Origin: Pseudomonadota bacterium | GTDB lineage: Bacteria; Pseudomonadota; Gammaproteobacteria; SURF-13 | Reading direction: 5' to 3' | NCBI GenBank assembly: GCA_040756035.1 | Contig: JBFLZV010000004.1 | Coordinates: 7,463-71,462 of the forward strand | DNA: 64,000 nucleotides | Shown here: piece by piece, positions 4,376-35,527 of the stretch | How positions within the stretch are numbered: position 1 is the first letter of the stretch | How the letters are laid out: every line of letters begins with the position of its first letter | Translations under genes and position numbers: made by a program | The notes under the pieces: generated by a model | The model's input: only the letters and a program-made list of their open reading frames with translations | Databases searched by the model: none | What the model was told of the DNA's origin: nothing

Positions 4376-4503
4376 CACTCACCCCCACTCTGTCCCCTTT
4401 GCGCTATGCTATCCATGCGCCGCGCAAAGTCCAGCCTGGCCATCGTGGCCCGGCGTTCCGCAACTTCGTTGCTTCACCCCTTGAAGGGGGCGGGAACGTA
4501 GCA
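4376..4503 (+). mobile_element. MITE/REP-like hairpin element, copy A
   Basis: Aligns by eye with 15507-15592 (ctgtcccctt...aaagtcc...) and with 15816-15861 (gcaac-N3-gttgcttcacccc...gggg...cgtagc). Confidence 0.7.
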
Positions 4504-4598
4504 TTTCGTGAGGCTTACTTAATGAAGTTCTTAGTAATTTTGCGTTACAGTGTATTACTATTGTGTGTCTATCTCTAACTTACGCAACGGAGTAACTG

Positions 4599-5789
4599 AT
4601 GGCTTGGAATGAACCGGGCGGCGCCAGGGACAAAGACCCCTGGGGTGGCCGCAAGAGCACTGAGCAAGGCCCTCCCGACCTGGACGAGTTGCTGCGCAAG
4701 TTGCAGCAGCGTCTGCGCGGTCTATTCGGCGGCAAGCGCCCGGAGGGTCCGGACGCCAAGCCGCTACGCCCGGGTTTCGGCCTGCTCGCCGCCATCGTGG
4801 TGATCGTGTGGCTGTTGTCGGGCATTTATATCGTCGATCCGGCGGAGCGCGGCGTGGTGCAGCGTTTCGGCGCCTACGCGGCCACCACGCTGCCCGGCCC
4901 GCATTGGCATATCCCGTATCCCATCGAGAAGGTGAACATCGTCAACGTCGATCAGATTCGCAACGTGGAAATCGGTTTCCGCTCCGACGGTTTGAAGCAA
5001 ACCGTGGAGGCGGTGCCGCGCGAGGCGCTGATGCTTACGCAAGACGAAAATATCGTCGACGTGCGTTTCGCCGTGCAGTATCACGTCAAGGACGCGCGCG
5101 ATTATTTGTTCAACGTGCGTGAGCCCGATTTCACGCTGCTACAAGCCACCGAGAGCGCGGTGCGCGAGATCATCGGCAAGAGTTCCATGGACTTCGTGCT
5201 CACCGAGGGGCGCGGCCAGGTGGAGGATACGTCGCGTGAAATGATCCAAAAAATTCTGGATCGTTACCGTTCCGGATTGCAGGTGACGAAAGTGAACATG
5301 CAAAACGCGCAGCCGCCCGAAGAGGTGCAGGACGCCTTCCAGGACGCGGTGCGCGCCATCGCCGACGAGCAGCGCTTGATAAACGAGGCCGAGACCTACG
5401 CCAACGGCGTCATCCCCGCGGCGCGCGGCGAGGCGGCGCGGCGCTTGGCCGAGGCGAATGCATACAAGGCGCAGGTCGTTGCGCAGGCGCAAGGTGAAGC
5501 AAGCCGCTTTACGCAAGTTTTGGAGCAATATCGCAACGCCCCCGACGTGACGCGCGAGCGTTTGTATCTGGAGGCCATGGAGGCGGTGCTTTCCAATACC
5601 GACAAGATCATGGTGGATATCAAGAGCGGCAATAATTTGCTCTACCTGCCCTTGGACCGCCTCGCGCAGCCGGCGCAGCGCGCGCCGGAGCCTGCGCCCG
5701 AGGCGCCCGCCGCCAGTGCGGAGCAAGTCGCGGCGGAGCCGAAGCAAGACACGCTGCGTGATCGTGGACGCAGCCGAGGAGAACGCTGA
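4599..5789 (+). CDS. hflK: FtsH protease modulator HflK
   Basis: MAWNEPG...DPWG...GPPDLDEL N-terminus, SPFH domain (MLTQDENIV), LLYLPLD C-terminus. Confidence 0.97.
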   Translation: MAWNEPGGARDKDPWGGRKSTEQGPPDLDELLRKLQQRLRGLFGGKRPEGPDAKPLRPGFGLLAAIVVIVWLLSGIYIVDPAERGVVQRFGAYAATTLPGPHWHIPYPIEKVNIVNVDQIRNVEIGFRSDGLKQTVEAVPREALMLTQDENIVDVRFAVQYHVKDARDYLFNVREPDFTLLQATESAVREIIGKSSMDFVLTEGRGQVEDTSREMIQKILDRYRSGLQVTKVNMQNAQPPEEVQDAFQDAVRAIADEQRLINEAETYANGVIPAARGEAARRLAEANAYKAQVVAQAQGEASRFTQVLEQYRNAPDVTRERLYLEAMEAVLSNTDKIMVDIKSGNNLLYLPLDRLAQPAQRAPEPAPEAPAASAEQVAAEPKQDTLRDRGRSRGER

Positions 5790-6691
5790 TGAGCCAGAAG
5801 ACCACCGCCGTCATCATCGCGCTGATCGCGCTGGCGATCATCGCTTCGTTTTCGCTGTTCAGCGTGGGCCAGAGCGAGCGCGCGATTCTATTCCGTCTCG
5901 GTGAAGTGGTGCGCAGCGATTTCAAGCCCGGCCTGCATGTCAAGGTGCCGTTCATCACCAACGTGCGCAAATTCGACGCGCGCATTCAAACGCTGGAGGC
6001 CGAGCCGGAGCGCTATCTCACCAAGGAAAAGAAAAACGTCTACGTCGATTCGTTCGTAAAGTGGCGCATTGCCGACGTGGCGCGCTATTACACGGCGATG
6101 AGCGGCGACGAGTCGCGCGCCGGGTTGCGTTTGTACCAGATCGTCAAGGCCGGCCTGCGCGGCGAATTCGGCAAGCGCACCATTCAAGAAGTGGTGTCCG
6201 GCGACCGTCCGGTGATCATGAGCCTGCTCACCGTGGCCGCCAATCAACAGGCGCAGCAGTTCGGCATCGAAGTGGTGGACGTGCGCATCCGGCGCGTGGA
6301 TTTGCCGAAGGAAGTGAGCGCCTCGGTTTTCCAGCGCATGCAGGCGGAACGCGCCCGCGTCGCCAAGGAAACACGCGCGCGCGGCGCCGAGGCGGCGGAG
6401 CGCATTCGCGCCGACGCCGACCGCCAGCGCGTGGTGATTTTGTCGGAAGCATACCGCGACGCCGAGCGTATCCGCGGCGAGGGTGACGCCGAAGCGTCGA
6501 ATGTCTACGCCGGCGCGTACGGCAGCGATCAGGAATTCTACGCCCTGTACCGCAGCCTGAACGCTTATAAGAACACATTCGGCGGCGGCAAGGGCGGCAT
6601 GCTGGTGTTGGAGCCCAGTTCCGAATTCTTCAAGTATTTTAAAGGGCCGAAGGCCGCCGGCGGCGCGGCGGGCGTCGCCAGGCAGCCGTAA
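5789..6691 (+). CDS. hflC: FtsH protease modulator HflC
   Basis: N-terminal TM, SPFH domain, RMQAERARVA, FYALYRSLNAY; follows hflK. Confidence 0.97.
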   Translation: MSQKTTAVIIALIALAIIASFSLFSVGQSERAILFRLGEVVRSDFKPGLHVKVPFITNVRKFDARIQTLEAEPERYLTKEKKNVYVDSFVKWRIADVARYYTAMSGDESRAGLRLYQIVKAGLRGEFGKRTIQEVVSGDRPVIMSLLTVAANQQAQQFGIEVVDVRIRRVDLPKEVSASVFQRMQAERARVAKETRARGAEAAERIRADADRQRVVILSEAYRDAERIRGEGDAEASNVYAGAYGSDQEFYALYRSLNAYKNTFGGGKGGMLVLEPSSEFFKYFKGPKAAGGAAGVARQP

Positions 6692-6699
6692 TAATTTGC

Positions 6700-6885
6700 A
6701 TGGGGACGACGCTGCTGATCGCTATCGCGCTGCTGCTGATTATCGAAGGCATATTACCTTTTTTGAACCCGGCGGCGCTGCGCAAGTCGTTGTTGTCCAT
6801 TGCGCAAATGGATGACCGCACCCTGCGCATCGGCGGATTGGTCAGCATGACGCTCGGCGTGGCGTTGCTGTATTGGGTGAATTAA
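6700..6885 (+). CDS. DUF2065 (YjeT-like) small membrane protein
   Basis: LLIIEGILPFLNP...LRIGG signature; usual position between hflC and purA/hisZ. Confidence 0.85.
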   Translation: MGTTLLIAIALLLIIEGILPFLNPAALRKSLLSIAQMDDRTLRIGGLVSMTLGVALLYWVN

Positions 6886-6916
6886 ACCAATAACCTCACA
6901 CAAAAACGTAAGAATT

Positions 6917-7031
6917 CTCACGCAAAGACGCCAAGTTCGTAAAGATTTAAAACTTAAAAGCCGTGAAATATCTCGCCATGATTAAGCCAATATTTTTTAT
7001 ATTATTTTGCGTCTTTGCGCCTTTGCGTGAG
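6917..7031. repeat. Paired inverted ACGCAAAG-type arms around an AT-rich core
   Basis: ctcacgcaaagacgccaag (6917-6935) ... tttgcgtctttgcgcctttgcgtgag (7006-7031). Confidence 0.85.
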
Positions 7032-7055
7032 ATGTTTTTTTTCGAGTCATAACCC

Positions 7056-8249
7056 ATGCTCGATAAAGACCGCTGGCTGTTGCCGGAAGGCATCGAAGAC
7101 GTGCTGCCGTCCGCGGCCGCGCGCTTGGAGCGGCTGCGCCGCGAGCTGCTCGACCTGTTCGGCGGTTGGGGTTACGAGCTGGTGATTCCGCCGCTGGTGG
7201 AATATCTGGAGTCGCTGCTCACCGGCACCGGCAACGATCTCGATCTACAAACTTTCAAGATCACCGATCAATTGACCGGACGCCTGATGGGCGTACGCGC
7301 CGACATGACGCCGCAGGTGGCGCGCATCGACGCGCACCTGCTCAAGCGCGACGCGCCGACGCGCCTGTGCTATTTGGATACGGTGCTGCACACGCGCCCG
7401 GACGGTTTTTCGCGCTCGCGCAATCCGCTGCAAGTGGGCGCCGAATTGTACGGCCACTCCGGAGTCGAGAGCGAAGCCGAAATACTGTGCCTGATGCTGG
7501 AGATGCTGAAGCTCGCCGGCATAGGCGCGGTGCACGTCGATCTCGGTCACGTGGGTATCTTCCGCGGCCTGGCGCGCGCCGCCGGGCTGAACGCCGAGCA
7601 AGAGGCCGTGCTGTTCGACGCTTTGCAACGCAAGGCCAAGGCCGAGATCGAAGAGTTTCTGACGGGCTGGTCGCTCGATGCGGTGCAACGCCGCCGCATC
7701 GTGAGTCTTGTGGAACTCAACGGCGGTGACGAAGTGTTGAGCGACGCGGAAGTCGCTCTGCGCGGCGCCGGTGACGCGGTGCGCGGCGCATTGGACAATC
7801 TGCGCAGCATCGCCGACGCGGTGCGTCGCCAAGCGCCGCAGCAGACTCTCTATTTCGATCTCGCCGAGTTGCGCGGCTATCACTATTACACCGGCGTGGT
7901 GTTCGCCGCCTTCGTGCCGGGCCATGGTCAGGCCATCGCGCAAGGCGGTCGCTACGACGACATCGGACGCGTGTTCGGACGCGCGCGCCCGGCCACCGGT
8001 TTCGGTGCTGACATTAAAACCCTGCTGGCGCTGAGCACGCAGCCTCTGCCTGAGCGGCCCGGCGCTATTTTTGCGCCGTGTGAAAATGACTCCGCGCTGC
8101 AGGCATTGGTTCGGACGCTGCGCGCGCAAGGCGAGCGCGTCGTCTACGCGCTGCCGGGACAAACCGGCGGCGCGCGAGAGGTAGGCTGCGACAGAGTGGT
8201 GAAAAAACAAAAAGGCGTGTGGACGGTAATCAAAACAGAGGAAAAGTAA
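7056..8249 (+). CDS. hisZ: ATP phosphoribosyltransferase regulatory subunit
   Basis: WLLPEGIEDVLP, RADMTPQVARID, ELRGYHYYTG, GGRYD; HisRS-like protein upstream of purA. Confidence 0.93.
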   Translation: MLDKDRWLLPEGIEDVLPSAAARLERLRRELLDLFGGWGYELVIPPLVEYLESLLTGTGNDLDLQTFKITDQLTGRLMGVRADMTPQVARIDAHLLKRDAPTRLCYLDTVLHTRPDGFSRSRNPLQVGAELYGHSGVESEAEILCLMLEMLKLAGIGAVHVDLGHVGIFRGLARAAGLNAEQEAVLFDALQRKAKAEIEEFLTGWSLDAVQRRRIVSLVELNGGDEVLSDAEVALRGAGDAVRGALDNLRSIADAVRRQAPQQTLYFDLAELRGYHYYTGVVFAAFVPGHGQAIAQGGRYDDIGRVFGRARPATGFGADIKTLLALSTQPLPERPGAIFAPCENDSALQALVRTLRAQGERVVYALPGQTGGAREVGCDRVVKKQKGVWTVIKTEEK

Positions 8250-9545
<1,296 letters not shown>

Positions 9546-9570
9546 AGGTTTTTTTAAAATTCAAAAAATC

Positions 9571-9694
9571 TAACGCAAAGACGTAAATAAAAAAGTAACA
9601 AGTTGCAAGTAACAAGATAAAAATTAATTTCTATACCTTTTCTTGGAACTTGTCACTTGTTACTTGGAACCGCTTTTTTGGCGTCTTTGCGTTG
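9571..9694. repeat. Nested element: outer ACGCAAAG arms enclosing an inverted heptamer array
   Basis: Outer aacgcaaagacg (9572) / cgtctttgcgtt (to 9693). Inner aagtaac-aagttgc-aagtaac-aag / cttggaa-cttgtca-cttgtta-ctt. Confidence 0.85.
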
Positions 9695-9705
9695 GGTTCT
9701 TTTAA

Positions 9706-10413
9706 TCAGTTCGGCAACCCTTCCACCGAGCGAATCAAAATAGTAAATTCATCGCCGTCCTTGCCGCGCTCTTCGATGCGTACCGGTAAATAAGATAAGC
9801 TCGGCGCGCACCACAGCGTGGTGATTTTTTGATCAGGCGCCATAATGCGCTGCACCTTCAATGTTTTGATCTCCCCCAAGGGCGTGTCCACGTTTTCCTC
9901 GCCGTCCACCTTGAAATGGTAGGTTTTGAATTTGTGCGTGTCCACCATCGGGTAGGTCAGTTCGCGCTTACCCTGCTGTAAATCGTACATCATGGCGAGC
10001 TGGTAGAGCAGTTGGTCGTAGGTGCGCGGCTCGATGGCGATGTTCGAGGTTTCGCCCGCGCTGGTGATCTTGGCGACGCCGTGCTTGTCGTCGAACGTCA
10101 CACTGATGCGACGCTCTTTCTTGCCGCCGGTTTTTTCGTAGCTGTATTGCAGCGGTTTGATTTGGTTGTTTTGATAGGTCCACACGCTGCGCTCGGCGAT
10201 CTGATCCTTCACAAACGCCGCCAGCAATCCGCCCGGCTGCATGGTGGAGGCGAACACGAATTTACCGTCTTCATCCGGCGCGAGTGAGCGGTGCACCTCG
10301 CCCAGCGTGATGTTGCCCTTGCTCATGACATAGCGCGCGCTGAAGGGCTGCGGCGCCGCGCAGGCTGTATAGGTAATGAATAATAATGCTACGCCGGCAA
10401 TCAAGCGGTGCAT
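9706..10413 (-). CDS. DUF3108-family exported protein
   Basis: Signal peptide; YDQLLYQLAMMYDL, ETPLG-like DTPLGEIKTL, TLWCAPSLSYLPVRI; usual neighbour of purN. Confidence 0.75.
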   Translation of the reverse strand: MHRLIAGVALLFITYTACAAPQPFSARYVMSKGNITLGEVHRSLAPDEDGKFVFASTMQPGGLLAAFVKDQIAERSVWTYQNNQIKPLQYSYEKTGGKKERRISVTFDDKHGVAKITSAGETSNIAIEPRTYDQLLYQLAMMYDLQQGKRELTYPMVDTHKFKTYHFKVDGEENVDTPLGEIKTLKVQRIMAPDQKITTLWCAPSLSYLPVRIEERGKDGDEFTILIRSVEGLPN

Positions 10414-10435
10414 GGTTTTCTCCGATTACACGGAA

Positions 10436-11125
10436 TTACTTTACAACATTTTCCCGCGCCGCGTCGTAGGCTCCGGAAGGATCGATGGGTCGCCCGTCGA
10501 GCAGGGCGCGCGCTTTGCCGTCCTTGCTATCCAGGCGTAAGCGTCCTTCCGCGAACCAGCGCAATGATCGGGGATAGATAACGTGCTCTTGTTCCAGCAC
10601 GCGTGCGGCCAAACTCTGCGGCGTATCGTGCGCCAGCACCGGCACGCGCGCTTGCAGGATTACCGGGCCGCCGTCCACGTCCGCGGTGACGAAATGCACG
10701 CTGGCGCCGTGCTCCCGCGCACCCGCGCTCAGCGCGCGTTGATGGGTGTCGAGCCCCGGGAAGGCTGGCAGCAGGGAGGGGTGGATGTTGAGCATTCTAC
10801 CCTGATAGTGCTCCACGAACTCCGGACTCAAGATGCGCATGAAGCCGGCCAGCGCTATTAATTCGGGAGAGAAGCTATCAATCAATTTTTGCAGCGCGGC
10901 GTCGAATGCGCGGCGGTCGGGAAAAGCGCCGTGCTCCAGCACGCGCGTGGTAATGCCGGCGTCGCGCGCGTACGCCAGCCCCGGCGCGTCCGCGCGGTTG
11001 CTGATGACGGCGCGGATGTCGAGCGGCAGGCGCTGCGCACGAACAGCCTCGATAATGGCATGCAGATTAGTGCCGCGCCCGGAGATCAACACCACGGTGG
11101 GCACAGGGCGTACGGCGGAGGTCAC
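10436..11125 (-). CDS. purN: Phosphoribosylglycinamide formyltransferase
   Basis: [39 protein letters not shown]. Confidence 0.97.
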
Positions 11126-12195: not shown

Positions 12196-12362
12196 GTGGG
12201 CTCCAACGGCAGTAACCGCTTATGATATCGAGCCGGCATGGGGACTGCAAATTGGCGTGGCTGTTGCGGGATGGCCGGCGCACCGAGAACCGCACCCTTG
12301 ACTTGACGGGTAACCTCGCATAGCGTGCGGGTATGATAAAAATAACCTTGCAGGGTTTATAG

Positions 12363-14787: not shown

Positions 14788-15384
14788 CGCTTTTCCAAGC
14801 GTCTTGACGGTTAGTGTTTGTTTTTCAGTTTCCCCGCTTGCGCTTTCAGCCCCATGCTCCTTTTGTTCGCCGGTGTGCGAAAGATAAATCGCCAGACCGA
14901 TCAAGGCGACGCTGCCGGCCAGGTACAGCAAATCGAGCGGCGTGGCGAAGCGCATGTTGATGGCGTGCTCGAAAAAACTGACGATCAAGATCATCAGAAT
15001 CACTTTCGCCAAGCGCGCCTTGAGGTCGTCCAGATTGTTGATCAGCAGCACGTTGGTAGCGCCAGCCGTGCTTGCCGCCTTGTCGATTTTGCTGACGAAT
15101 AATTCGTACAATCCGAAAGCGAAGATCAGCAACACCGTGGCGAGCAGATAACCGTCGACGATTTCCACCACGTGCGCGATGGTTTCGTCATGCAGCGCCT
15201 TGCGGCCCTCGGCGCCCAAGTCGGGCGAGGCGTAATCGGCGAGGTGTGCTACCATGTAATAGGCGTCGACGGTGGCCATGTAGAACATGGCAAGCGCCGC
15301 CGCCAGGCTGGCGGCGACCGCTGACAGCACCACGAAACGGCTGTCCCACAACAAACCTTCGAATAAAGCTTCCAGCTTTCTCAT
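14770..15384 (-). CDS. YqhA family (UPF0114) membrane protein
   Basis: FEGLLWDSRF, VVEIVDGYLLATVLLIFAFGLYELFVSKID, LDDLKARLAKVI. Confidence 0.85.
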   Translation of the reverse strand: MRKLEALFEGLLWDSRFVVLSAVAASLAAALAMFYMATVDAYYMVAHLADYASPDLGAEGRKALHDETIAHVVEIVDGYLLATVLLIFAFGLYELFVSKIDKAASTAGATNVLLINNLDDLKARLAKVILMILIVSFFEHAINMRFATPLDLLYLAGSVALIGLAIYLSHTGEQKEHGAESASGETEKQTLTVKTLGKAPSDKH

Positions 15385-15442
15385 GCACGTGATTACCTCT
15401 GGCAGGCGCGCGTCGCCGCGCGTCTAAGTCGGGATAGCATTA

Positions 15443-15861
15443 TTACTCAGGAGTCATAAAATAAGGCGACAAACCTTTATGAGATGACTCCTGAGCAAGC
15501 CCTGTTCACTCTACTCTCACCCTGTCCCCTTTTACGCTACGCCATCCTGCTCCGCATAAAAGTCCGGCCAAGCCCTCCATGGCTTGGCGGTCATGATGCA
15601 CATCCATGTGCATCACCCTACGGGCCGCCTAACGGCGGCGCCGTTTGGCAATCCTGCCAAACGGTCATGATGCACATCCATGTGCATCACCCTACGGGCC
15701 GCCTAACGGCGGCGCCGTTTGGCAATCCTGCCCAACGGTCATGATGCACATCCGTGTGCATCACCCTACGGGCCGCCTAACGGCGGCGCCGTTTGGCAAT
15801 CCTGCCAAACGGTCGGCAACCTCGTTGCTTCACCCCTAAACAGGGGGACGGGGACGTAGCT
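15443..15861 (+). mobile_element. MITE/REP-like element, copy B (composite, contains the tandem array)
   Basis: 5' inverted-repeat cap ttactcaggagtcat...atgactcctgagcaa (15443-15498). Body ends ccctgtcccc ... ggggacgggg (imperfect inverted repeat). Homologous to copies at 4376 and 35381. Confidence 0.8.
15588..15814 (+). repeat. Three tandem 74-bp units made of stacked hairpins
   Basis: cggtc recurs at 15588, 15662, 15736 and 15810. The units differ by only about one base each, and there are no unique spacers. Confidence 0.95.
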
Positions 15862-15895
15862 GAAATATAGTCTCACTTACTGACTTATGAGTAAC

Positions 15896-16247: not shown

Positions 16248-16904
<657 letters not shown>

Positions 16905-17020
16905 GGGGTGGGCACGTTGTGTGTGCCCACGTTATTTGCGGTGCCGTCCATGGCGCGACTTCGGTTTTCTTAATCAACCCCAGCCATGCCTTCCACGGCA
17001 TGGTCTTCGCGGTTCAGCCC

Positions 17021-18565
17021 CTACAGATTGGCCGCCTGCGGATGTGCCCGCTGTTGTGGTTGGATGATTTTATTCATGGCGTTGATGTACGCCTTGGCCG
17101 AGGCGATGACGATGTCGGTATCCGCGCCCTGGCCGTTGACGATGCGCCCGCCTTTTTCCACGCGCACCGTGACCTCGCCCTGCGAATCGGTGCCGCTGGT
17201 GATGTTGTTCACCGAATAAAGTTGCAGCGTCGTGCCGCTGTCCACGATGGCCTCGACGGCCTTGAAGGCGGCGTCCACCGGCCCGCCGCCGCGCGCCGTG
17301 GCATGTTGCTCCGCGCCGTCCACCCACAACGTGATCTGCGCTTCGGGCGTCGCGCCGGTCTCGGAGCAGACTTTTAAAAATATTAATTTGATGTGCTCGT
17401 TCTCCGCGGCGAGATTGGCGTCGGTAACCAGCGCCTGTAAATCCTCGTCGTAGATTTCGTGCTTCTTGTCGGCCAACTCCTTGAAGCGGTCGAACGCCGC
17501 GTTCAATTCATCTTCCGTGTCGAACGTCACGCCCAATTCCTGCATGCGCGTGCGGAAGGCGTTGCGTCCGGAGTGTTTGCCCAACACCATGCGGTTGGCG
17601 GTCCAGCCTACATCTTGCGCGTGCATGATTTCGTAAGTCGTGCGGTGCTTGAGCACGCCGTCCTGATGAATGCCGGATTCGTGCGCGAAGGCGTTGGCGC
17701 CGACGATGGCCTTGTTGGGTTGCACGGCGAAGCCGGTGATGCCGGATACCAGGCGCGAGCAGGCGACGATTTGCGTGGTGTCGATGTCGACGTCGCAGGT
17801 GAATACGTCGCGGCGTGTGCGCACCGCCATGACGATTTCTTCCAGCGCCGCGTTGCCGGCGCGTTCACCCAGGCCGTTGATGGTGCACTCCACTTGGCGC
17901 GCGCCGTTCAATACCGCGGACAGCGAATTGGCCACGGCCAGGCCGAGGTCGTTGTGACAGTGCGTCGACCAGATCGCCTTGTCGGCGTTGGGCACGCGCT
18001 CGATCAACGCCTTGATGCGTTCGCCCCAGGCGTGCGGAATGCTGTAGCCGACGGTGTCGGGCACGTTGACGGTTCTGGCTCCGGCCGCGATCGCCGCCTC
18101 GAATATGCGGCATAGAAAATCCATGTCGGAACGTACGGCGTCTTCGGCGGAAAATTCGACGTCGTCGGTGTAGCGGCGCGCCCGCTTCACCATCGCCACG
18201 GCCCGCTCCAGCACCTGTTCCGGCGTCATGCGCAGCTTGTATTGCATGTGAATCGGCGAGGTGGCGATGAAGGTGTGAATGCGCGCCGACTTGGCGCCCT
18301 TCAGCGCCTCGGCGGCGCGGTCGATGTCCTTGTCGAGCGCGCGCGCCAAGCCGCACACCGTGCTGTCTTTAATGGCGTTGGCCACCGCCTGCACGGCCTC
18401 GAAGTCGCCGGGGCTGGCGATGGGGAAGCCGGCCTCGATCACGTCCACGCGCATACGCTCCAGCGCCTTGGCGATGCGCACTTTTTCGTCGCGCGTCATG
18501 GAGGCGCCGGGGCTTTGCTCGCCGTCGCGCAACGTCGTATCGAAAATAATTAATTTGTCGCTCAT
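17021..18565 (-). CDS. leuA: 2-isopropylmalate synthase
   Basis: [45 protein letters not shown]-terminal regulatory domain. Confidence 0.97.
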
Positions 18566-19682: not shown

Positions 19683-20704
<1,022 letters not shown>

Positions 20705-20722
20705 TTACCTATATTTAACAAC

Positions 20723-20796
20723 CCAACGCAAAGACGCAAAGACGCCAAGAAATTCGATTTATATGAAATCTTAGCGTCTTAGCGTCTTCGCGTTGG
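20723..20796. repeat. Paired inverted ACGCAAAG-type arms between ilvH and ilvC
   Basis: ccaacgcaaagacgcaaagacgccaaga ... tcttagcgtcttagcgtcttcgcgttgg around an 18-bp AT-rich core. Confidence 0.85.
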
Positions 20797-20808
20797 ATTT
20801 TTTGTGAA

Positions 20809-21300
20809 TTAAACCTTCAAACTTTTTTCGCCGCGCGCGATGCCCGATACGCCGGAGCGCACCACTTCCATGATGGACTTGCGGTCCAGCGCCTCGATGA
20901 AGCCGTCCAATTTTTCACCGGTGCCGGTGAGCTCGATGACGTAGGTGCTGTCCGTGACGTCGATGATGTGGCCGCGGAAAATGTCCGCCATGCGCTTGAT
21001 CTCGTCGCGCGCATCATTCACCGCCTTGACCTTGATGAGCATCATCTCGCGCTCGATGTGCGGACCTTCAGTGAGGTCGAGCAGCTTGACCACGTCGATC
21101 AATTTGTTCAATTGTTTGATGATCTGCTCGATGATGTCGTCGGTGCCGTGCGTGACCAGCGTAAGGCGCGACAGCGAAGGGTCCTCGGTGGGCGCCACGG
21201 TGAGCGATTCGATATTATAGCCGCGCGCGGAAAACAAGCCGGCCACGCGCGACAAGGCGCCCGACTCATTTTCCATGAGTATTGAAATGATGTGACGCAT
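20809..21300 (-). CDS. ilvH: Acetolactate synthase small subunit
   Basis: MRHIISILMENESGALSRVAGLFSARGYNIESL ACT domain; KQLNKLIDV. Confidence 0.96.
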   Translation of the reverse strand: MRHIISILMENESGALSRVAGLFSARGYNIESLTVAPTEDPSLSRLTLVTHGTDDIIEQIIKQLNKLIDVVKLLDLTEGPHIEREMMLIKVKAVNDARDEIKRMADIFRGHIIDVTDSTYVIELTGTGEKLDGFIEALDRKSIMEVVRSGVSGIARGEKSLKV

Positions 21301-21308
21301 AGTTTAAT

Positions 21309-21341
21309 AAAATCCAACGCAAAGACGCGAAGACGCGAAGA
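21309..21341. repeat. Solo ACGCAAAG-type arm between ilvI and ilvH
   Basis: aaaatccaacgcaaagacgcgaagacgcgaaga matches the reverse complement of 20769-20801 at 30/33 positions. Confidence 0.8.
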
Positions 21342-21376
21342 AAATCAATGAGGTTAGGAGCATTTTGCCGGGTGCT

Positions 21377-23098
21377 CTAAGCTAATTCTCGTTCTGGCGA
21401 AAGATGCATTTCATGGTGCCCCTTGCCGGCCTCGATCATGGGATAGACGTTTTCGGTCTGGTCGGTGATGAAGTCCATGAACACCAGGCGGTCCTTGAGT
21501 TTCAACGCCTCCTTGAGCGCGCCTTCCACGTCACCGGGCTTGTCAATGAGCATGCCCACGTGGCCGAAACTCTCGGCGAGTTTCACGAAATCCGGCAGCG
21601 CGTCCATGTAGGAATGCGAATAGCGGCCCTTGTAGAAAAATTCCTGCCACTGCCGCACCATGCCCATGTAGCGATTGTTCAAATTAATGATTTTGATCGG
21701 CAGGCCGTATTGCTTGCAGGTGGACAATTCCTGAATGCACATGATGATGCTGGCCTCGCCGGTGACGCACGCCACGGTCGATTTGGGGTGCGCCAGTTGC
21801 ACGCCCATCGCCGCCGGCAGCCCGAAGCCCATGGTGCCGAGGCCGCCGGAATTGATCCAACGGCGCGGCTTGTCGAATTTGTAAAACTGCGCGGCCCACA
21901 TTTGGTGCTGACCCACGTCGGAGGTGACGAAGGCATCGCCCTTGGTGAGCTTGTACAAAGTTTCCAGCACGTACTGCGGTTTGATCAGCTTGCTGTTGCG
22001 GTCGTAGCGCAGGCAATCGCGCGCGCGCCACGCGTCGATTTGTTTCCACCAGTTCTTGAGCGCGGCTTGATCGGGTTTTTTCGTGCTCGCCTTGATGAGC
22101 TTGATCATCTCGCGCAGCACGTTATCGACCGAACCGACGATGGGCACGTCCACGCGGATGCTCTTGGAGATCGAGGCCGGGTCGATGTCGATGTGGATTT
22201 TCTTGGAGTAGGGCGAGAACAGATCGGGCTTGCCCACCACGCGGTCGTCAAAGCGCGCGCCCACGGCGAGCAGCACGTCGCATTCGTGCATGGCCATGTT
22301 GGCTTCATAAGTGCCGTGCATGCCCAGCATGCCGACGAACTGCTTGTCGGTGGCGGGGTACGCGCCCAGACCCATCAACGTGCTGGTAATCGGGTGGCCG
22401 AGCAAGTGCACGAATTCGGTCAAGGTCTTCGATGCCTCGCCCAGGATCACGCCGCCGCCGGTGTAGATCATCGGGCGCTGCGCGTTGAGCAGCAGCTCCA
22501 CGGCCTTTTTGATCTGGCCGGGGTGGCCTTCGGTCACCGGCTTGTAGGAACGCAGCGTCACTTTTTTCGGATAGTGGTACTCGGCCTTGTTGGCGGTCAC
22601 GTCCTTGGGGATGTCCACCACCACCGGGCCGGGGCGGCCGCTGCTGGCGATATAAAAGGCCTTCTTGATGGTTTCCGCCAGGTCTTTTACGTCCTTCACC
22701 AGGAAATTATGTTTCACGCAGGGGCGCGTGATGCCGACCGAATCGACTTCCTGGAAGGCGTCGCTGCCGATGGCCCAGGTGTGCACCTGGCCGGTGATGA
22801 CCACCAGCGGAATGGAGTCCATGTAGGCGGTGGCGATGCCGGTGACGGCGTTGGTCGCGCCCGGGCCGGAGGTGACCAGCACCACGCCCGGCTTGCCGGT
22901 CGAGCGCGCGTAGCCGTCCGCGGCGTGCGCGGCGCCTTGCTCATGGCGCACCAGGATGTGCTGCACGTCGTCCTGCTTGTACAGGGCGTCATAGATGTGC
23001 AAAACCGCCCCGCCGGGGTAGCCAAATACAAACTCGACGCCCTCATCCTTCAAGCAATGGATGAGAATTTCGGCACCGGTCAGTTCCACGTCAGTCAC
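21377..23098 (-). CDS. ilvI: Acetolactate synthase large subunit (biosynthetic)
   Basis: FGYPGGA, RHEQ, TSGPGATN, GMHG, DVGQHQMW, GGLGTMGFG, LNNRYMGMVRQWQ. Confidence 0.96.
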   Translation of the reverse strand: MTDVELTGAEILIHCLKDEGVEFVFGYPGGAVLHIYDALYKQDDVQHILVRHEQGAAHAADGYARSTGKPGVVLVTSGPGATNAVTGIATAYMDSIPLVVITGQVHTWAIGSDAFQEVDSVGITRPCVKHNFLVKDVKDLAETIKKAFYIASSGRPGPVVVDIPKDVTANKAEYHYPKKVTLRSYKPVTEGHPGQIKKAVELLLNAQRPMIYTGGGVILGEASKTLTEFVHLLGHPITSTLMGLGAYPATDKQFVGMLGMHGTYEANMAMHECDVLLAVGARFDDRVVGKPDLFSPYSKKIHIDIDPASISKSIRVDVPIVGSVDNVLREMIKLIKASTKKPDQAALKNWWKQIDAWRARDCLRYDRNSKLIKPQYVLETLYKLTKGDAFVTSDVGQHQMWAAQFYKFDKPRRWINSGGLGTMGFGLPAAMGVQLAHPKSTVACVTGEASIIMCIQELSTCKQYGLPIKIINLNNRYMGMVRQWQEFFYKGRYSHSYMDALPDFVKLAESFGHVGMLIDKPGDVEGALKEALKLKDRLVFMDFITDQTENVYPMIEAGKGHHEMHLSPERELA

Positions 23099-23124
23099 TC
23101 CTAGGTTAAATTAGTAATCTAGCG

Positions 23125-23211
23125 ATCGCTCCTGGCGGTGCTATCCTTGCACCGTTGCGTCGCTATAGCCATGCCGTCCCTGGCATGGCGTTCGCGGCTT
23201 CGCCGCTCACC
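23125..23211 (+). repeat. Hairpin-module element (TCC-loop family) in the ilvI/MIF divergent region
   Basis: Three stems: cggtgc-tatcctt-gcaccg, gccatgcc-gtccct-ggcatggc, gcggc-ttc-gccgc followed by tcacc. Module order matches copy A. Confidence 0.7.
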
Positions 23212-23286
23212 TTAGAATACCCGATCAGGTCAAGTAATGGGAACAAAAAATCGTTATTTTTGCTGAAAATACAGGAGTTGCGCGCC

Positions 23287-23778: not shown

Positions 23779-23779
23779 T

Positions 23780-24427: not shown

Positions 24428-24492
24428 GGCGGCCTCCTTGGGCCTTTGCATTTGTTCCTCTTAAAGCACGCAAGACTTATGCCATAATGCTT

Positions 24493-25355: not shown

Positions 25356-25362
25356 AACTTTT

Positions 25363-30647: not shown

Positions 30648-30659
30648 AATAACCTCATA

Positions 30660-30719
30660 ATTCCTGAGTATTTTAGTAAGGTATTTAGTGTAGGTAACTT
30701 GAGTATTTCAGTCAAGTAT
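30660..30719 (-). promoter_or_regulatory. Two tandem IscR type-1-like boxes overlapping a sigma70 promoter of the suf operon
   Basis: Minus strand ATACTTGACTGAAATACTCAAGTTA (30719-30695) and ATACCTTACTAAAATACTCAGGAAT (30684-30660), each 22/25 against the consensus ATASYYGACTRWWWYAGTCRRSTAT. Promoter TTGACT-17-TACACT (30715-30687). Confidence 0.7.
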
Positions 30720-30818
30720 TATCGGGAATAACGAGCGGGCTGAGAAATCAGTAAATTTTACCTGCGTCCGAAGCGCAATGGTAGAATGCCGCGCCTATTT
30801 TTGTATCAGGGGATATTC

Positions 30819-32069
30819 GTGACTACCGCCAAAATTGCCGTTCCGCCGGGTGAAAAGATCAGCGTTAACAAGAACGGCGCGCTCAGCGTGCCGGCCCACC
30901 CGATTATCCCATTCATCGAAGGCGACGGCATCGGCGTGGACATTACCCCGGTGATGCGCCGCGTGGTGGATGCCGCGGTCGCCAAGGCTTACGGCGGCAA
31001 GCGCGCCATCGCCTGGATGGAAGTGTACGCCGGCGAAAAGGCGGCGGCGCGCTGCGGCGGCAACTGGCTGCCGGATGAAACGCTGCGCGCGGTGCGCGAC
31101 TACGTGGTGTCCATCAAGGGCCCGTTGACCACGCCGGTCGGCGGCGGGATGCGCTCGCTCAACGTCACGCTGCGCCAGGAATTGGATTTATACGTCTGCC
31201 TGCGCCCGGTGCGTTATTTCACCGGCACGCCGAGCCCGCTCAAGCATCCGGAAAAAACCGACATGGTGATCTTCCGTGAAAATTCCGAGGACATCTACGC
31301 CGGCATCGAATGGGCGGCGGGCACGCCGGAGGTGAAAAAAGTCATCGATTTTTTGCAGCGTGACATGGGCGTGAAAAAAATCCGTTTCCCGGAAACCTCC
31401 AGCATCGGCATCAAGCCGGTGTCGCGCGAGGGCACCGAGCGCCTGGTGCGCAAAGCCGTGCAATACGCCATCGACAACAACCGCGACTCGGTGACGCTGG
31501 TGCATAAGGGCAATATCATGAAGTTCACCGAGGGTGGCTTCCGAAATTGGGGCTACGAACTGGCCAAGCGCGAATTCGGCGCGACGGAAATCGATAAAGG
31601 CCCGTGGTGCCGGATGAAGAATCCGAAAACCGGCAAGGAAATTATCATCAAGGACGTGATCGCGGATGCCTTCCTGCAAGAGATTTTATTGAAGCCGGAA
31701 GAATTCAGCGTGATCGCCACGCTCAACTTGAATGGCGATTACATCTCCGACGCGCTGGCCGCGCAAGTCGGCGGCATCGGCATGGCGCCGGGCGCCAATT
31801 TATCCGACACCGTCGCCATGTTCGAGGCCACGCACGGCACCGCGCCGAAGTATGCCGGTAAAAACGAACTCAACCCGGCCTCGATTATTCTCTCCGCCGA
31901 GATGATGCTGCGCCACCTGGGTTGGTTCGAGGCCGCCGATTTGATTATCAAGGGCGTATGCGGCGCGATTTCCGCCAAGACCGTCACCGTCGATCTGGAA
32001 CGCCTCATGCCCGGCGCCACGCGCGTGAGCACGTCGGGGTTCGGCGAGGCGGTTATTAAGGACATGTAG
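30819..32069 (+). CDS. icd: Isocitrate dehydrogenase (E. coli-type, probably NADP-dependent)
   Basis: [57 protein letters not shown] start inferred. Confidence 0.95.
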
Positions 32070-32088
32070 GCAACATTCTATTTACATT

Positions 32089-32426
32089 CTACTTCAGGCC
32101 GTTCAGCATGACCTGCACTTGCCTTTTAAGTTTTGGCAAATCGGCTTCGATGACTTGCCACACATATCCAAGATCAACTCCTACAATAGTTGTGTGCCAG
32201 CACATTTCGGAAACCTGCAATGTCCCGCCAGGGTACATCGGTGTGCGCTGCCATTAGGGGTTCGGAAATGCGTTGGCTGGATTCAGCAAGGGTTTGCAAG
32301 TTGCGTAATACGGCGTCTTGAATCAGTGTGGAATTCATCAACTCACTTTATTCCGCCGGTGGTGTATTTCTCAATGCGATCTATGCATTCACTGATGTGG
32401 ATTAGATAAAGCCTATCATCTTTCAT
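32089..32426 (-). pseudogene. hepT: HepT/DUF86 HEPN RNase toxin with two +1 frameshifts
   Basis: [25 protein letters not shown] / SELMNSTLIQDAVLRNLQTLAESSQRIS...PWRDIAGFRNVLAHNY / GVDLGYVWQVIEADLPKLK. ATGA overlap with the mntA stop. 338 bp minus 2 = 112 codons. Confidence 0.85.
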
Positions 32427-32713
32427 AGCCGCACCGCTTCTTTTAGTACTTTGTCGCGGATATACCAGTGCAGCCCTTGCTCCGTGACAATGTCTACTTT
32501 GCGGCCTAATAATTCCTGCAAATCCATTAGCAACCCTCCCAGATCGAACAGACTGCGGCCCGGTTCCAGGTCCACCAAAATATCGATATCGCTGCGAGCG
32601 CTTGCTTCGTTTCTGGCTACTGAGCCAAACACACGGAGATTGCGTGCGCCGTGCTTAGCCGCCAATGCTAGGATTGCCTCGCGTTTCAGTTCTATCGTTT
32701 TGTTAAGCGCCAT
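32423..32713 (-). CDS. mntA: MntA-type minimal nucleotidyltransferase antitoxin
   Basis: [16 protein letters not shown] (GSx10DxD), [10 protein letters not shown]; 96 aa; lower GC than its neighbours. Confidence 0.9.
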
Positions 32714-32746
32714 ATTTAAGTTTCTTGTTTTCCGCCAAGGATGATC

Positions 32747-33085
32747 TCATGTCAGCGCCAACAGCGCGTCAATCTTCGCCGCACAAATGAAGTCGTTTTC
32801 GGTAAGCCCGTGCACGGCGTGGGTGCTGTAGCGCACCGTGCATTTGTTATAGCTGACTTCCATGTCAGGGTGGTGATCCTCCCGGTGCGCGATCCAGGCC
32901 ACGGCGTTTACGAAGGCCATGGTTTGGTAATAATTTTTGAATTGAAAGGTGCGGCTGATGGCGTCGCCTTTGTCATTCAGCGCCCAGCCCGTCACTTGAT
33001 TCAGCATGTCACGCGCTTGCATGGCGGAGAGCGGCGCCACGCCGCCCTCGCAGGCTTTGCAATGTTTGGCCGCCAAGTCGCTCAT
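32747..33085 (-). CDS. phhB: Pterin-4-alpha-carbinolamine dehydratase
   Basis: CKACEGG, FQFKNYYQTMAFVNAVAWIAHREDHHPD, THAVHGLTENDFICAAKID. Confidence 0.92.
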   Translation of the reverse strand: MSDLAAKHCKACEGGVAPLSAMQARDMLNQVTGWALNDKGDAISRTFQFKNYYQTMAFVNAVAWIAHREDHHPDMEVSYNKCTVRYSTHAVHGLTENDFICAAKIDALLALT

Positions 33086-33402
33086 GGGTTGTCCCCTCCG
33101 AATTTGTAGAAGGCTTGGTTTAAATAGGCCACGACGTCGTCGATGTCTTGGTCTTTCCAATTCAAACCGTTCATGGACTCGCAGAAGCGCACACGCTTAT
33201 TCAGGCCGTCGAGCGAGCGCACGATGCGGTTGGGGCGCGTGAAAATGGCGGTTGGATTGCCATCCATTAACTTGGCGTGGCAGGACGTGCAGTGGGCGTC
33301 GTGCAGCTCCTTGCCGCGCGCCGGATCGCCGGCGGCTTGCGCGGACGGCAGGCTGAGCAGCACCGCGCCGCCCAGTATTAGCATTGTGCAATATCTTTTC
33401 AT
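33082..33402 (-). CDS. Periplasmic monoheme cytochrome c with an extra distal Cys
   Basis: Signal peptide, CTSCH, then FTRPNRIVRSL...VRFCESM...W...VVAYLN...FYKF. Confidence 0.85.
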   Translation of the reverse strand: MKRYCTMLILGGAVLLSLPSAQAAGDPARGKELHDAHCTSCHAKLMDGNPTAIFTRPNRIVRSLDGLNKRVRFCESMNGLNWKDQDIDDVVAYLNQAFYKFGGDNP

Positions 33403-34676
33403 GATGCAGCCTCCATGGGTGCCGCGCTAACCTTGGTCCACAGATGCGCCACGCGCGCGGCGGCGGGCGGATGGGAATCGTGAAATGCCGAATAGAGCGG
33501 ATCAGGCGTGAGCGTGCTGGCGTTTTCCTTGTAGAGCTTGACCAAGGCGTCGATCAGCGCGCGGGGATCGGTGTGTTGCGCGGCGAAATCGTCGGCCTCG
33601 AACTCGTCCTTGCGCGAAAAATAGGCGATGATCGGATAAAAAAAGAACGTGAATACCGGCGTGACCAATAGGAATAATATCAATGCGGCGTGCAGCGAAG
33701 GCTGCGCGACGCCCAGGCCGGCGTAAAACCATTCTTGTTCCATCAGCCAGCCGAGCAGGGCGAGGCCGATCAGGCTGACCAGCGTCATTAAAACCAAGCG
33801 TTTCTGCACGTGTTTGCGCTTGAAGTGGCCGAGTTCGTGGGCCAGCACGGCTTCGATTTCGGCGGGCTGCAACGTGTCCATCAGCGTATCGAAAAACACG
33901 ATGCGTTTGTGCGCGCCCAGGCCGGTGAAATAGGCGTTACCGTGACCGGAGCGCGTGGAGCCGTCCATGACGAAAATGCCTTTGCTGGTAAAGCCGCATT
34001 TTTGCAATAATCTTTGGATGCGCTGCGCCAGATCGGCGTCGCCAAGTTCCTTGAATTTATTGAACAGCGGCGCGATGAAGGCCGGGTAGGCCCACATCAT
34101 AAGCAACGTGAAGCCGGTCCACACCAGCCACACGTACAGCCACCACAAGCCGCCGGACGCATCCATCAGCCACAGCACCAGCGTGGCGAGCGGCGCGCCG
34201 AGCGCGAGCAGCAGTAATGCCTGCTTCAGCAGGTCGGTGATGAACACTTTCGGGGTGGTGCGGTTAAAACCGAAGCGCTGTTCGATGACGAAGGTGCGAT
34301 AGACGGCGAACGGCAAATCGAGTGTGGCTATCAACAAGAACGCGCTGAGCAAGAAGCCGACACCCGTCCATACCGGGCTCAGCTCCAGCGCGCGCCACGC
34401 TTGATCGAGCAGATTCAGACCGCCGCCGAGCGTCCACAGCAGCAGCCACAGTGCGCCGGCGATCAGTTCGATCTGGCCGAAGCGGGTCTTGGCGAGCGTG
34501 TAGTCCGCGGCCTTTTGATGCGCCTCGGCGGGAATGCGCGCGCTGAAGTCTGGCGGCACCTGCGCGCGGTGCGCGGCCACAAAGGCGATTTGACGCCGCG
34601 CCAGCCACAGTTGCAGGCCTAAGCCGCCGCTGAGCGCCGCCAGAAACAGCAGGGTGAAGGAATTCATCGTGAGCAC
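33399..34676 (-). CDS. M48 family (STE24-like) membrane zinc metalloprotease
   Basis: MDGSTRSGHGNAYFTG, AHELGH, EFEAD, HPPAAAR; multiple TM segments. Confidence 0.93.
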   Translation of the reverse strand: MLTMNSFTLLFLAALSGGLGLQLWLARRQIAFVAAHRAQVPPDFSARIPAEAHQKAADYTLAKTRFGQIELIAGALWLLLWTLGGGLNLLDQAWRALELSPVWTGVGFLLSAFLLIATLDLPFAVYRTFVIEQRFGFNRTTPKVFITDLLKQALLLLALGAPLATLVLWLMDASGGLWWLYVWLVWTGFTLLMMWAYPAFIAPLFNKFKELGDADLAQRIQRLLQKCGFTSKGIFVMDGSTRSGHGNAYFTGLGAHKRIVFFDTLMDTLQPAEIEAVLAHELGHFKRKHVQKRLVLMTLVSLIGLALLGWLMEQEWFYAGLGVAQPSLHAALILFLLVTPVFTFFFYPIIAYFSRKDEFEADDFAAQHTDPRALIDALVKLYKENASTLTPDPLYSAFHDSHPPAAARVAHLWTKVSAAPMEAAS

Positions 34677-34766
34677 TCGAAAGTTAACATGGTAAGTAGG
34701 TTAGCCTCTGGTACAATGCTTGGCAAGACGCCCATCCGGGCTACATCACCATAACGAAAGAGCGGC

Positions 34767-35312
34767 ATGGCACAAAACTCCAACAATTTGATCTGGATCG
34801 ATCTGGAAATGACGGGCTTAAACACCGAGGTCGATCAGATTATCGAAATTGCAACCATTGTCACCGATAGCGATCTTAACATCCTGGAGGAAGGGCCGGT
34901 GCTGGCGATCCATCAGAACAACGCTATCCTCGAGGGCATGGATAGCTGGAATTCGCAGCAACACGCGAAGTCCGGTCTCATCGAGCGCGTGCGCGCCAGC
35001 CTCATAGACGAAGTGGAGGCCGAGCGACGTACGCTGGAATTCGTGCAAAAGTACGTGCCGCGCAACAAGTCGCCCATGTGCGGCAACAGCATTTGCCAGG
35101 ACCGGCGCTTTTTGTACCGTTGTATGCCGGAGTTGGAAAAATATTTTCATTATCGTAATTTGGACGTGAGCACGATCAAGGAATTGGCCAAGCGCTGGAT
35201 GCCTGCGATGGCGGATGGGTTTGTTAAAAACTCCACGCACCTGGCGCTGGACGACGTGCGCGACTCCATCCGCGAACTAAAATATTACCGCGAGCATTTT
35301 TTCAAGATTTGA
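34767..35312 (+). CDS. orn: Oligoribonuclease
   Basis: [38 protein letters not shown]. Confidence 0.97.
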
Positions 35313-35380
35313 TGCGACAAAGTTGTATCGGAGCGGGAGGTGTTACATGGAGATCGGTAAGTAAGGCTACACTTCACGCT

Positions 35381-35527
35381 GTCGCCAAGCCATGGAGAGC
35401 TTGGCTGGATTTTTACGCGGAGCGGATAACGTGGCGTAAAGGGGGCAGGGTGGGGTAGAGTAATCAGGGTTTTTACTCAGGGGTCATAGCATAAGGTTTC
35501 TTGCCTTGCTTTATGACCCCTGAGTAA
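35381..35527 (-). mobile_element. MITE/REP-like element, copy C
   Basis: Its reverse complement aligns with 15443-15592. Perfect 16-bp inverted repeat ttactcaggggtcata / tatgacccctgagtaa (35473-35527) plus the hairpin gccaagc...gcttggc. Confidence 0.85.

Follow-up and report, generated by a model that had tools for sequence, protein, structure and literature searches.

Miniature inverted-repeat elements of probable IS630 descent and their hairpin cargo in an uncultured gammaproteobacterium

Contig JBFLZV010000004.1, 632 kb in length, originates from an uncultured gammaproteobacterium that is represented in several metagenome assemblies and whose closest HflK relatives show 72-76% identity. 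A stretch of 64 kb, analysed here as a whole and termed the window, contains dispersed hairpins with differing stems around a recurrent loop, NTCC(A/C)T. An earlier note, made from the letters alone, proposed one family at five loci and a recognition of single-stranded structure by HUH/Y1 transposases. Two questions are raised by these loci: which kind of element distributes the hairpins, and at which level is the loop read? The first has a probable answer. The loci are best explained as copies of a miniature transposable element with inverted repeats (MITE) from an insertion sequence (IS) of the IS630 family, one lineage of which carries a passenger block of hairpins inside its core hairpin. 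By alignment, a single variant with cargo is represented in the window by the intact copy B and by four decayed ones, A, C, D and E. The features are:

4370-4540, minus strand: copy A, decayed, in the hflX-hflK spacer (covariance-model match, alignment).
15443-15894, minus strand: copy B, an intact MITE of 452 nt with the full hairpin cargo (end repeats, alignment to short-form MITEs).
15876-15894, minus strand: left repeat of copy B, TTACTCATAAGTCAGTAAG, 0 mismatches.
15443-15457, minus strand: right repeat of copy B, TTACTCAGGAGTCAT, matching the left repeat at 12 of 15 positions in inverted orientation.
15588-15814, minus strand: 74-nt unit in copy B, 3.1 repeats (Tandem Repeats Finder: period 74, 98% matches).
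15443-15498, minus strand: terminal hairpin of copy B, with the right terminal repeat as outer arm and the IS-derived TTGTCGCCTTATTTT in its loop.
16892-17029, minus strand: copy E, a decayed cargo remnant, no terminal repeats (covariance-model match at 16928-17029, alignment).
23114-23213, minus strand: copy C, cargo only, without terminal repeats (covariance-model match, alignment).
35343-35527, plus strand: copy D, decayed, between the RNase T-like and glutaredoxin genes in sense orientation (covariance-model match, alignment).

The 19-mer of the left end was found at 12 loci in a scan of metagenomes. Loci from other assemblies or contigs are given L-numbers, L037 being a 72% and L039 a 66% relative. 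In five loci (L042, L048, L049, L050, L053), an IS of 1098-1108 bp begins with the 19-mer; its two ends are inverted repeats of each other, perfectly or nearly so, and a single intact open reading frame (ORF) of 344-349 aa lies about 25-50 nt inside the end. The parent IS measures 1107-1108 bp, has the terminal repeats TTACTCATAAGTCAG... and encodes a transposase of 344 aa. L052 shows the same IS end, and its contig stops about 70 nt further on. The ORF encodes an IS630-family transposase of the DDE, Tc1/mariner-like type (NCBIfam NF033545, 219 bits at a cutoff of 100) with the Pfam domain DDE_3 and helix-turn-helix (winged-helix) domains. An annotated IS630 transposase on the Polaromonas sp. 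P1-6 plasmid CP087967 is flanked by the same terminal repeat. The left 19-mer of the MITE is identical (19/19) to the IS ends in L042, L048, L049, L050, L052 and L053, and its first 18 nt match the Polaromonas IS end (...GTAAT). On the right, 12-13 of 15 positions match the IS repeat (13/15 for the IS copies in L048 and L053), followed by about 30 nt of subterminal homology (copy B TTGTCGCCTTATTTTATGACTCCTGAGTAA, IS CTGTCGCCTATGTTTCTGACTTATGAGTAA). In the IS, this segment encodes the C-terminus of the transposase. Because the end repeats match the IS and the homology continues at the right end, the element can be regarded as an internal-deletion derivative, a MITE, of this IS630 group. A reading of the 19-mer (TTACT-N8-AGTAAG, followed by TAYAYT) as regulator site and -10 box of a small RNA promoter was dropped, the 19-mer being an IS end. 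Scans of viral contigs with the 19-mer, the G-rich core and an hflX 30-mer gave no matches.

Relatives contain a shorter form of the element. The hflX-hflK spacer of L037 holds one with exactly the same 19-mer. Non-coding short forms of 150-170 nt are present in L037, L043 (two within 14 kb) and L047; the form is truncated in L046 and minimal in L045. The order is left repeat, CTACACT, a core hairpin CCCGCCCC/GGGGCGGG, the G-rich GGGACAGGGTGGGGGTAGG, and a terminal hairpin with the right repeat as outer arm. Short forms in relatives lack the hairpin array, yet they are multicopy, and other contigs give different flanks. Compared with the short form, copies A, B and D contain one homologous extra block, which separates the GGGG of the core hairpin from its GGGGAC. 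The hairpin modules of this genome are passenger sequence inserted in the MITE core hairpin. Two junctions of elements were observed besides. In L047, a partial extra left repeat (TACTCATAAGTCAG) directly precedes a full MITE (~923-956), and in L044 an IS630-type end abuts a TnpB-like (IS605 OrfB) zinc-finger ORF fragment at ~10341-10360, apparently one element inside another.

The cargo block reads, on the proposed RNA-sense strand, GCAAC-GAR-GUUGC, then the hairpin GCC-NN-GCC/GGC-NN-GGC (termed H-b), YGGAYUUUU, and a stem UUUURYGC/GCRYAAAA around a GGA-rich loop. The triplicated 74-nt unit is an addition seen in copy B only. Each unit forms three hairpins: CGUUUGGC-AGGAUU-GCCAAACG, GCCGCC-GUUA-GGCGGC, and UGAUGCAC-AYGGAU-GUGCAUCA. 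The cargo may have grown by tandem duplication, as in the threefold 74-nt unit, while selection or palindrome-correcting mutation may have preserved the pairing of its stems. Of the 14 alignment columns that are invariant among the decayed copies, which have lost their terminal repeats, 12 belong to the H-b hairpin, including the GA of the loop.

The genes flanking the loci are hflX, hflK, a UPF0114 gene, and genes of a thiamine-diphosphate enzyme (acetolactate-synthase-like), an RNase T-like exonuclease and a monothiol-type glutaredoxin. Copy B precedes the UPF0114 gene, which starts at 15384, and begins one base past the stop (15896) of a small ORF on the minus strand; the GGA strand of this copy corresponds to the mRNA sense. 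Copy A has a degenerate left repeat (4518-4537), no right repeat, and four GGA in its cargo; an AT-rich 13-bp inverted repeat adjoins at 4326-4356. Copy C is located in the leader region upstream of the thiamine-diphosphate enzyme gene (21377-23098, minus strand) and presents the loops AGGGAC and AAGGAUA. Copy E follows directly after the stop of an ORF at 17021-18565 (minus strand). It forms a hairpin CCAUGCC-GUGGAA-GGCAUGG and a short stem-loop GCC-AUGGAC-GGC (within GCGCCAUGGACGGCAC), enclosed by CTGTAGGGG/CCCCTACAG. Copies C and E have kept the cargo block and a few bases of the core loop (CU..AGGGG-UGA). Copy D retains a degenerate left repeat (35343-35361) and an intact terminal hairpin (35473-35527), with the start of core and cargo deleted; it is identical across eight independent assemblies. 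The outer arm of its terminal hairpin and a following TACAAT form a plausible -35/-10 pair before the glutaredoxin gene (35513-35545; TTTATG - 17 nt - TACAAT). The MITE end may thereby supply part of the glutaredoxin promoter; a consensus promoter scan did not call the TTTATG/TACAAT pair.

The five stem-loops quoted in the earlier note are all present in the sequence. Four points of its account required correction: the list of loci, a missed copy, the covariation, and the independence of the hairpins. The hairpin gccaagcc-CTCCAT-ggcttggc was found at 15567-15588, tgatgcac-ATCCAT-gtgcatca at 15594-15615, 15668-15689 and 15742-15763 (the last with the loop ATCCGT), and ccgtttggc-AATCCT-gccaaacgg at 15641-15664 and 15789-15812. 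Copy C harbors cggtgc-TATCCTT-gcaccg (23136-23154) and gccatgcc-GTCCCT-ggcatggc (23168-23189), and copy D, in reverse orientation, gccaagc-CATGGAGA-gcttggc (35384-35405). Among the loci listed, those now named A, B, C and D hold. Locus 3960 is of another family: it is a 153-nt insertion, in frame within hflX and made of a different repeat. The homologous locus E on the minus strand had been missed. All five homologous loci (A to E) are intergenic, and alignments extend their homology over the whole length, beyond the hairpins alone. Three of the hairpins represent one triplicated 74-nt unit, leaving about six or seven independent hairpin types.

The hairpin pattern exceeds chance. The window contains 44 perfect hairpins with a stem of at least 7 bp, nine of them within these loci. 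TCC or GGA is central in eight of these nine and in 9 of the 35 elsewhere. Hairpins with an ANGGAN hexaloop and a stem of at least 8 bp occur in the window only within these loci, to which each stem sequence is also confined. The 'next module' described earlier, GCAACNTCGTTGCTTCACCCC, is real and present at 4460-4480 and 15816-15836, two matches at a chance expectation of 0.03; the version at locus C is gcggc-ttc-gccgc-tcacc. A covariance model, which the earlier note had suggested, was built from the shared block. It recovered A (4376-4480, 92.7 bits), C (23114-23213, 90.3 bits), B (15509-15619, 74.9 bits) and D (35347-35462, 72 bits) and, with filters off, the additional decayed copy E (16928-17029, 20.1 bits, E = 8e-5). 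Nothing else convincing was detected in the window and 100 kb of DNA from relatives. Weaker matches (17717, 11667, 43498, 55651, and within hflK of L037 and L064) were rejected as noise, being coding sequence with less than 15 bits. A candidate at 30657-30725 with TTACT/AGTAAG-like words was also discarded, as its MITE score was no better than that of shuffles. A pattern scan of genome contigs with CCCCTTTN{0,1}RCGCYAYGNNATCC yielded 31 matches at chance level, all in unrelated taxa, from a collection that does not include the source organism.

Covariation of the stems is real and modest in extent; the remaining quoted stems are different hairpins and not variants of one. In the homologous hairpin GCC-NN-GCC/GGC-NN-GGC, one or two pairs vary (AA/TT, AT/AT, GG/CA). 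The second hairpin has AU, UA and GC at its variable pair. The next module co-varies as described, gcaac/gttgc versus gcggc/gccgc, with two pairs changed from AU to GC. In a five-row alignment, the structure surpassed all 500 shuffles and all slid controls, both in covariation score and in paired cells; because of a misalignment of rows A and C in the terminal helix, only helices 3-5 are to be read.

The notion of a mobile, non-autonomous family served in trans by an enzyme encoded outside the window is supported by the distribution of the copies. Copies beyond the loci named before exist, namely copy E and the short forms in other genomes, and occupancy varies between relatives. The hflX-hflK spacer is occupied in the window, L037, L064 and L065, and empty in L039-L041, where it measures 115 nt; L038 has no element within 130 nt of hflK. 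The elements, short forms included, are non-coding and 150-452 nt long, and five copies occur at unrelated sites in the 64 kb. Short-read assemblies break inside the elements. The copies would spread by cut-and-paste through an IS630 transposase encoded elsewhere, which would bind the terminal repeats and insert at TA. The site is suggested by the ends of IS and MITE, which all read T-TA-CTC...GAG-TA-A, with one copy ending ...GAGTAC. Such ends are compatible with a TA duplication at a TTAA-like site, as known for IS630-related elements such as RUP (PMC2229807). Several points weigh against this account. An empty site was found for none of the copies, and the TA duplication is therefore not proven. 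No IS630 transposase is encoded in the 64-kb window. Copy D is fixed in all eight source-species assemblies holding the locus, with no sign of current mobility. Copies C and E are devoid of terminal repeats and are assigned to the MITE remnants through homology of their cargo and of a few core bases.

The second question concerns the loop. The hairpin loops are unlikely to be read by a transposase, because they are internal, far from the ends, and absent from the short forms of relatives. A better explanation of the conserved loop lies in RNA of the opposite strand: NTCC(A/C)T there becomes ANGGAN, the hairpin motif of the RNA regulator CsrA/RsmA (PMC7652899). A conserved loop on variable stems can signal RNA-protein recognition on the opposite strand, and a hairpin-reading transposase is not the necessary inference. 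The loops on this strand are AUGGAG, AGGGAC, AUGGAU/ACGGAU, AGGAUU, AAGGAUA and GUGGAA, mostly preceded by CA. High-affinity targets of RsmE are hairpins with ANGGAN hexaloops (PMC7652899). CsrB contains about 18 CAGGA(U/A/C)G repeats in loops, and the consensus from in vitro selection of ligands (SELEX) is RUACARGGAUGU (PMC7652899). The loops match these motifs, and GCACAUGGAUGUGC of copy B agrees with the SELEX consensus at 10 of 12 positions. GGA and TCC counts on the proposed sense strand are 4/1 in A, 12/3 in B, 3/0 in C and 5/0 in D, versus 2-3 GGA and 3-4 TCC in the cargo-free short forms. The predicted fold leaves 15 of the 16 GGA triplets of the cargo unpaired, and no cargo contains TCC. 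G-U wobbles, checked by eye, are located in stems of the GGA strand (UUUUAUGC/GCGUAAAA, terminal hairpin of B, closing stem of A). The GGA strand folds more stably in seven of eight copies and is the sense strand of adjacent genes in four of five (B, C, D, E). It would be transcribed as leaders, intercistronic segments or 3' untranslated regions. The transcripts could bind CsrA as a local regulatory module or a sponge, or simply stabilise or terminate transcripts. It is possible, at somewhat less than an even chance, that the cargo works as RNA on the GGA strand and binds CsrA/RsmA, whose binding hairpins its loops resemble.

Two alternatives dispense with IS630-type transposition of a hairpin cargo. 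According to the reading favoured in the earlier note, the loci are substrates like those of repetitive extragenic palindromic (REP) sequences, bacterial interspersed mosaic elements (BIMEs) or IS200/IS605, with hairpins read as single-stranded DNA by a HUH/Y1 transposase (TnpA or a REP-associated tyrosine transposase, RAYT) in trans. It is not supported and is very improbable, even though dispersed GC-rich hairpins with a conserved loop would fit it, the UGAUGCAC hairpin is preceded on the GGA strand by GTAGGG like a REP head, and L044 harbors the TnpB-like ORF fragment, though interrupted there by the IS630 end. The terminal inverted repeats are identical to IS630 ends, whereas IS200/IS605 elements have none (PMC2817692), and only a DDE enzyme was found between such ends. 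The GT(A/G)G head is missing at the conserved hairpin GCCNNGCC-ANGGAN-GGCNNGGC and at CGUUUGGC. The stems differ and are limited to these loci, in contrast to REPs, which recur almost unchanged at tens to hundreds of sites, and the short forms of relatives are multicopy without any hairpin array. A tblastn search with IS200 TnpA, a weak test, revealed no Y1 transposase in the window or the fetched loci. Hardly more probable are non-mobile, paralogous genes for sponge RNAs of the CsrB/RsmZ type with own promoters, their likeness to IS630 repeats being incidental. In favour of such genes, multiple ANGGAN/CAGGA loops lie on one strand, and tandem amplification of GGA hairpins is typical of such RNAs; an inverted repeat with a T-run follows copy A, copy D is fixed in the population, and the hflX-hflK spacer holds a copy in two lineages. 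The 19/19 end match and the about 30 nt of IS homology at the right end are far beyond chance for this reading, however, and copies in relatives reside at other loci without the GGA array. Simple consensus scans detected no promoter, GacA box or canonical terminator, and no Rfam match was obtained. Sponge RNA genes would not usually number five in 32 kb, and B, D and E directly adjoin a neighbouring gene at its stop codon or start region.

With IS630-derived MITEs preferred as the carriers, a generic structural or neutral role of the hairpins is the main rival to CsrA/RsmA binding and has close to an even chance. In this case, the hairpins lack a sequence-specific partner and act as 3'-end stabilisers, weak terminators or insulators, or are neutral; the loop would be shared by common descent from one duplicated hairpin, and template-switch repair would keep the stems palindromic. 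Base composition explains the abundance of GGA: the total in the cargo is not above the dinucleotide-shuffle expectation (p = 0.07-0.36; 0.012 for D), which counts against the CsrA proposal as well. The H-b hairpin is followed by GGAYUUUU, and in copy D it (GCCAAGCC...GCUUGGC) is the only hairpin called terminator-like. Copies lie between co-oriented genes, as do REP and BOX elements, and BOX and RUP are likewise without a proven partner (PMC3049150). A merely generic role fits less well with unrelated stems that share CA(N)GGA loops at fixed hexaloop positions, with decayed copies that keep GGA next to different neighbours (AUGGAG, AGGGAC, GUGGAA), with the strict strand asymmetry of a cargo free of TCC, and with the CAGGAUG and ANGGAN loops of an unrelated 57-nt repeat of the same lineage. 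Further observations speak against CsrA binding. The independent hairpin types number only about six or seven, the cargo was seen in one genome only, and copy A is antisense to both of its neighbours, hflX and hflK. Template-switch correction of palindromes can maintain paired stems without selection. No Csr/Rsm family of Rfam matched any locus, at the gathering threshold or at E up to 10. Simple consensus scans, which can miss real signals, detected neither a sigma-70-like promoter nor a canonical terminator at A or B, nor a GacA-type box near any copy. A motif scan of the window found no CsrA-like ORF. The widest form of the CsrA proposal is rather unlikely: a transposon would have picked up, amplified and spread CsrA/RsmA-type hairpins, its insertions would place Csr-responsive modules or sponge pieces, and the host would keep the hairpins after decay of the ends (A, C, D, E). 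The hflX repeat presents the same kind of loop, which would make mobile CsrA sites general in the clade.

The hflX repeat itself is a separate dispersed family:

3968-4120, plus strand: 153-nt in-frame insertion in hflX (repeat comparison with L039).

The hflX ORF spans 2979-4307, and the insertion is located between the G4 motif NKID and ERDEQGR. A 38-mer, CGTGCCAGTGTCGCGGGAGGCAGGATGCCGGGAGCGAC, occurs twice in it, and the direct repeat CGCCGCACATGGA of 13 nt stands after each copy as well as, in native form, just before the insertion. A nested insert of 51 nt interrupts the second 38-mer. L039 has the same 38-mer with identical nucleotides at the same site of hflX, and hflX of L037 lacks the insertion. 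L039 contains further copies of about 57 nt at a purN/DUF3108 junction and a pgsA/perM-like junction, and a fragment earlier in hflX. In L039, the repeat coordinates are 9497-9544, 15733-15818, 18402-18458 and 8554-8573. The dispersed repeat of 38-57 nt is GTCGCGGGAGGCAGGATGCCGGGAGCGAC, preceded by a small GYAC-ANGGAN-GURC hairpin. At the two gene junctions syntenic with L039, the window contains no 57-nt repeat; alignments of occupied L039 and empty window sites are too diverged to define repeat ends or a duplication. The repeat folds into GCAC-AUGGAC-GUGC, in other copies GUAC-AGGGAA-GUAC with one compensatory pair. Its second part folds as GUCGC-GGGA-[GGCA-GGA-UGCC]-GGGA-GCGAC. The GGA loops are on the hflX sense strand, and the CsrB word CAGGAUG is among them without change. 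The repeat and the MITE cargo have no more than an 11-nt core (GGCAGGAU(U)GCC) in common. Short-read assemblies of the source strain break inside this repeat, with contigs starting at window position ~4091.

The window contains other palindromes and one isolated motif. Imperfect intergenic palindromes are built from an 8-nt word, ACGCAAAG (complement CTTTGCGT), with two or three words per arm (6990-7056, 9546-9720, 20699-20810, 21300-21380, 46019-46216, 50082-50245). They lie typically between genes in terminator-like placement and look like a genome-specific, low-complexity hairpin family. Long purine/pyrimidine palindromes (AAGGGAAAAGGG... / ...CCCTTTTCCCTT) are present upstream of a der-like ORF (52040-52185) and around the junction of two large ORFs (58955-59125). 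They give spurious Rfam matches to plant and animal microRNAs (E 1e-3 to 1e-5), well under the gathering scores. A third palindromic word family (AAGTAACAAGTTGCAAGTAACAAG) occurs in two intergenic regions, 9586-9661 and 53558-53642. On the plus strand at 38502-38519, TGTAAGGTCTCGCTTACT corresponds to the GacA/UvrY box TGTAAG-N6-CTTACA with one mismatch, about 0.3 such matches being expected by chance (own estimate). It is placed at the convergent ends of the DUF3301 and ABC-F genes, away from the MITE copies.

With its IS630 partner identified, the MITE family adds a clean but ordinary entry to the catalogues of bacterial repeats. It is of practical use in annotation because the elements break short-read assemblies of this uncultured lineage. 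MITEs of this kind are already known; a transposon that spreads CsrA-type hairpins would be new, and this is unproven. If the ANGGAN hairpins do bind CsrA, they would be a first case of a transposon distributing binding sites for a global post-transcriptional regulator, a bacterial parallel to the transposon-borne regulatory sites of eukaryotes and a route to the origin of sponge RNAs. No paper linking MITEs or REPs with CsrA sites was found in the literature library searched, and a word search with the terminal repeat gave unrelated papers only.

Among known systems, RUP and IS630-Spn1 share with the present family a non-coding, multicopy and intergenic element with TA termini, ends matching an IS630-family IS, and a presumed mobilisation in trans (PMC2229807, PMC3049150). 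RUP is a uniform, AT-rich element of 107 bp without a variable internal module, whereas the MITEs described here are GC-rich, measure 150-452 nt, bear a hairpin array in one lineage, and keep the last transposase codons at the right end. The BOX elements of streptococci (boxA - boxB(n) - boxC) resemble copy B in having end modules around variable tandem internal units that fold independently of the ends (PMC3049150). Their sequence is unrelated, BOX is only weakly similar to an IS end, and boxB lacks the GGA-loop signature. Correia elements (NEMIS) of Neisseria and QMITE1/2 of Coxiella are MITEs with TA termini as well, co-transcribed with neighbouring genes and in some cases yielding small RNAs (PMC2229807, PMC10969869). 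They differ in terminal repeats and hosts, and none has been reported with CsrA-type hairpin arrays.

REP/BIME-RAYT systems and IS200/IS605 have dispersed GC-rich hairpins and a distant enzyme in common with the loci. In REPs, the palindromes are near-identical, preceded by a GT(A/G)G head and devoid of terminal inverted repeats (PMC2817692); the present element has differing stems, no such head, and repeats of IS630 type at its borders. Rickettsia palindromic elements are comparable to the hflX insertion only, as short palindromic repeats in frame in a conserved protein gene (PMC10969869). The hflX unit is distinguished by its 38 nt plus a 13-nt direct repeat, another host lineage, and its richness in GGA loops. 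CsrB, CsrC, RsmX/Y/Z and CsrA-bound leaders also present ANGGAN or CAGGA(U/A/C)G loops on unrelated stems of one strand, show tandem duplication, and belong to gammaproteobacterial hosts (PMC7652899). In contrast to these RNAs, the candidate RNA, for which no Rfam match, UvrY/GacA box, own promoter or canonical terminator was detected, would be part of a transposon remnant within mRNAs.

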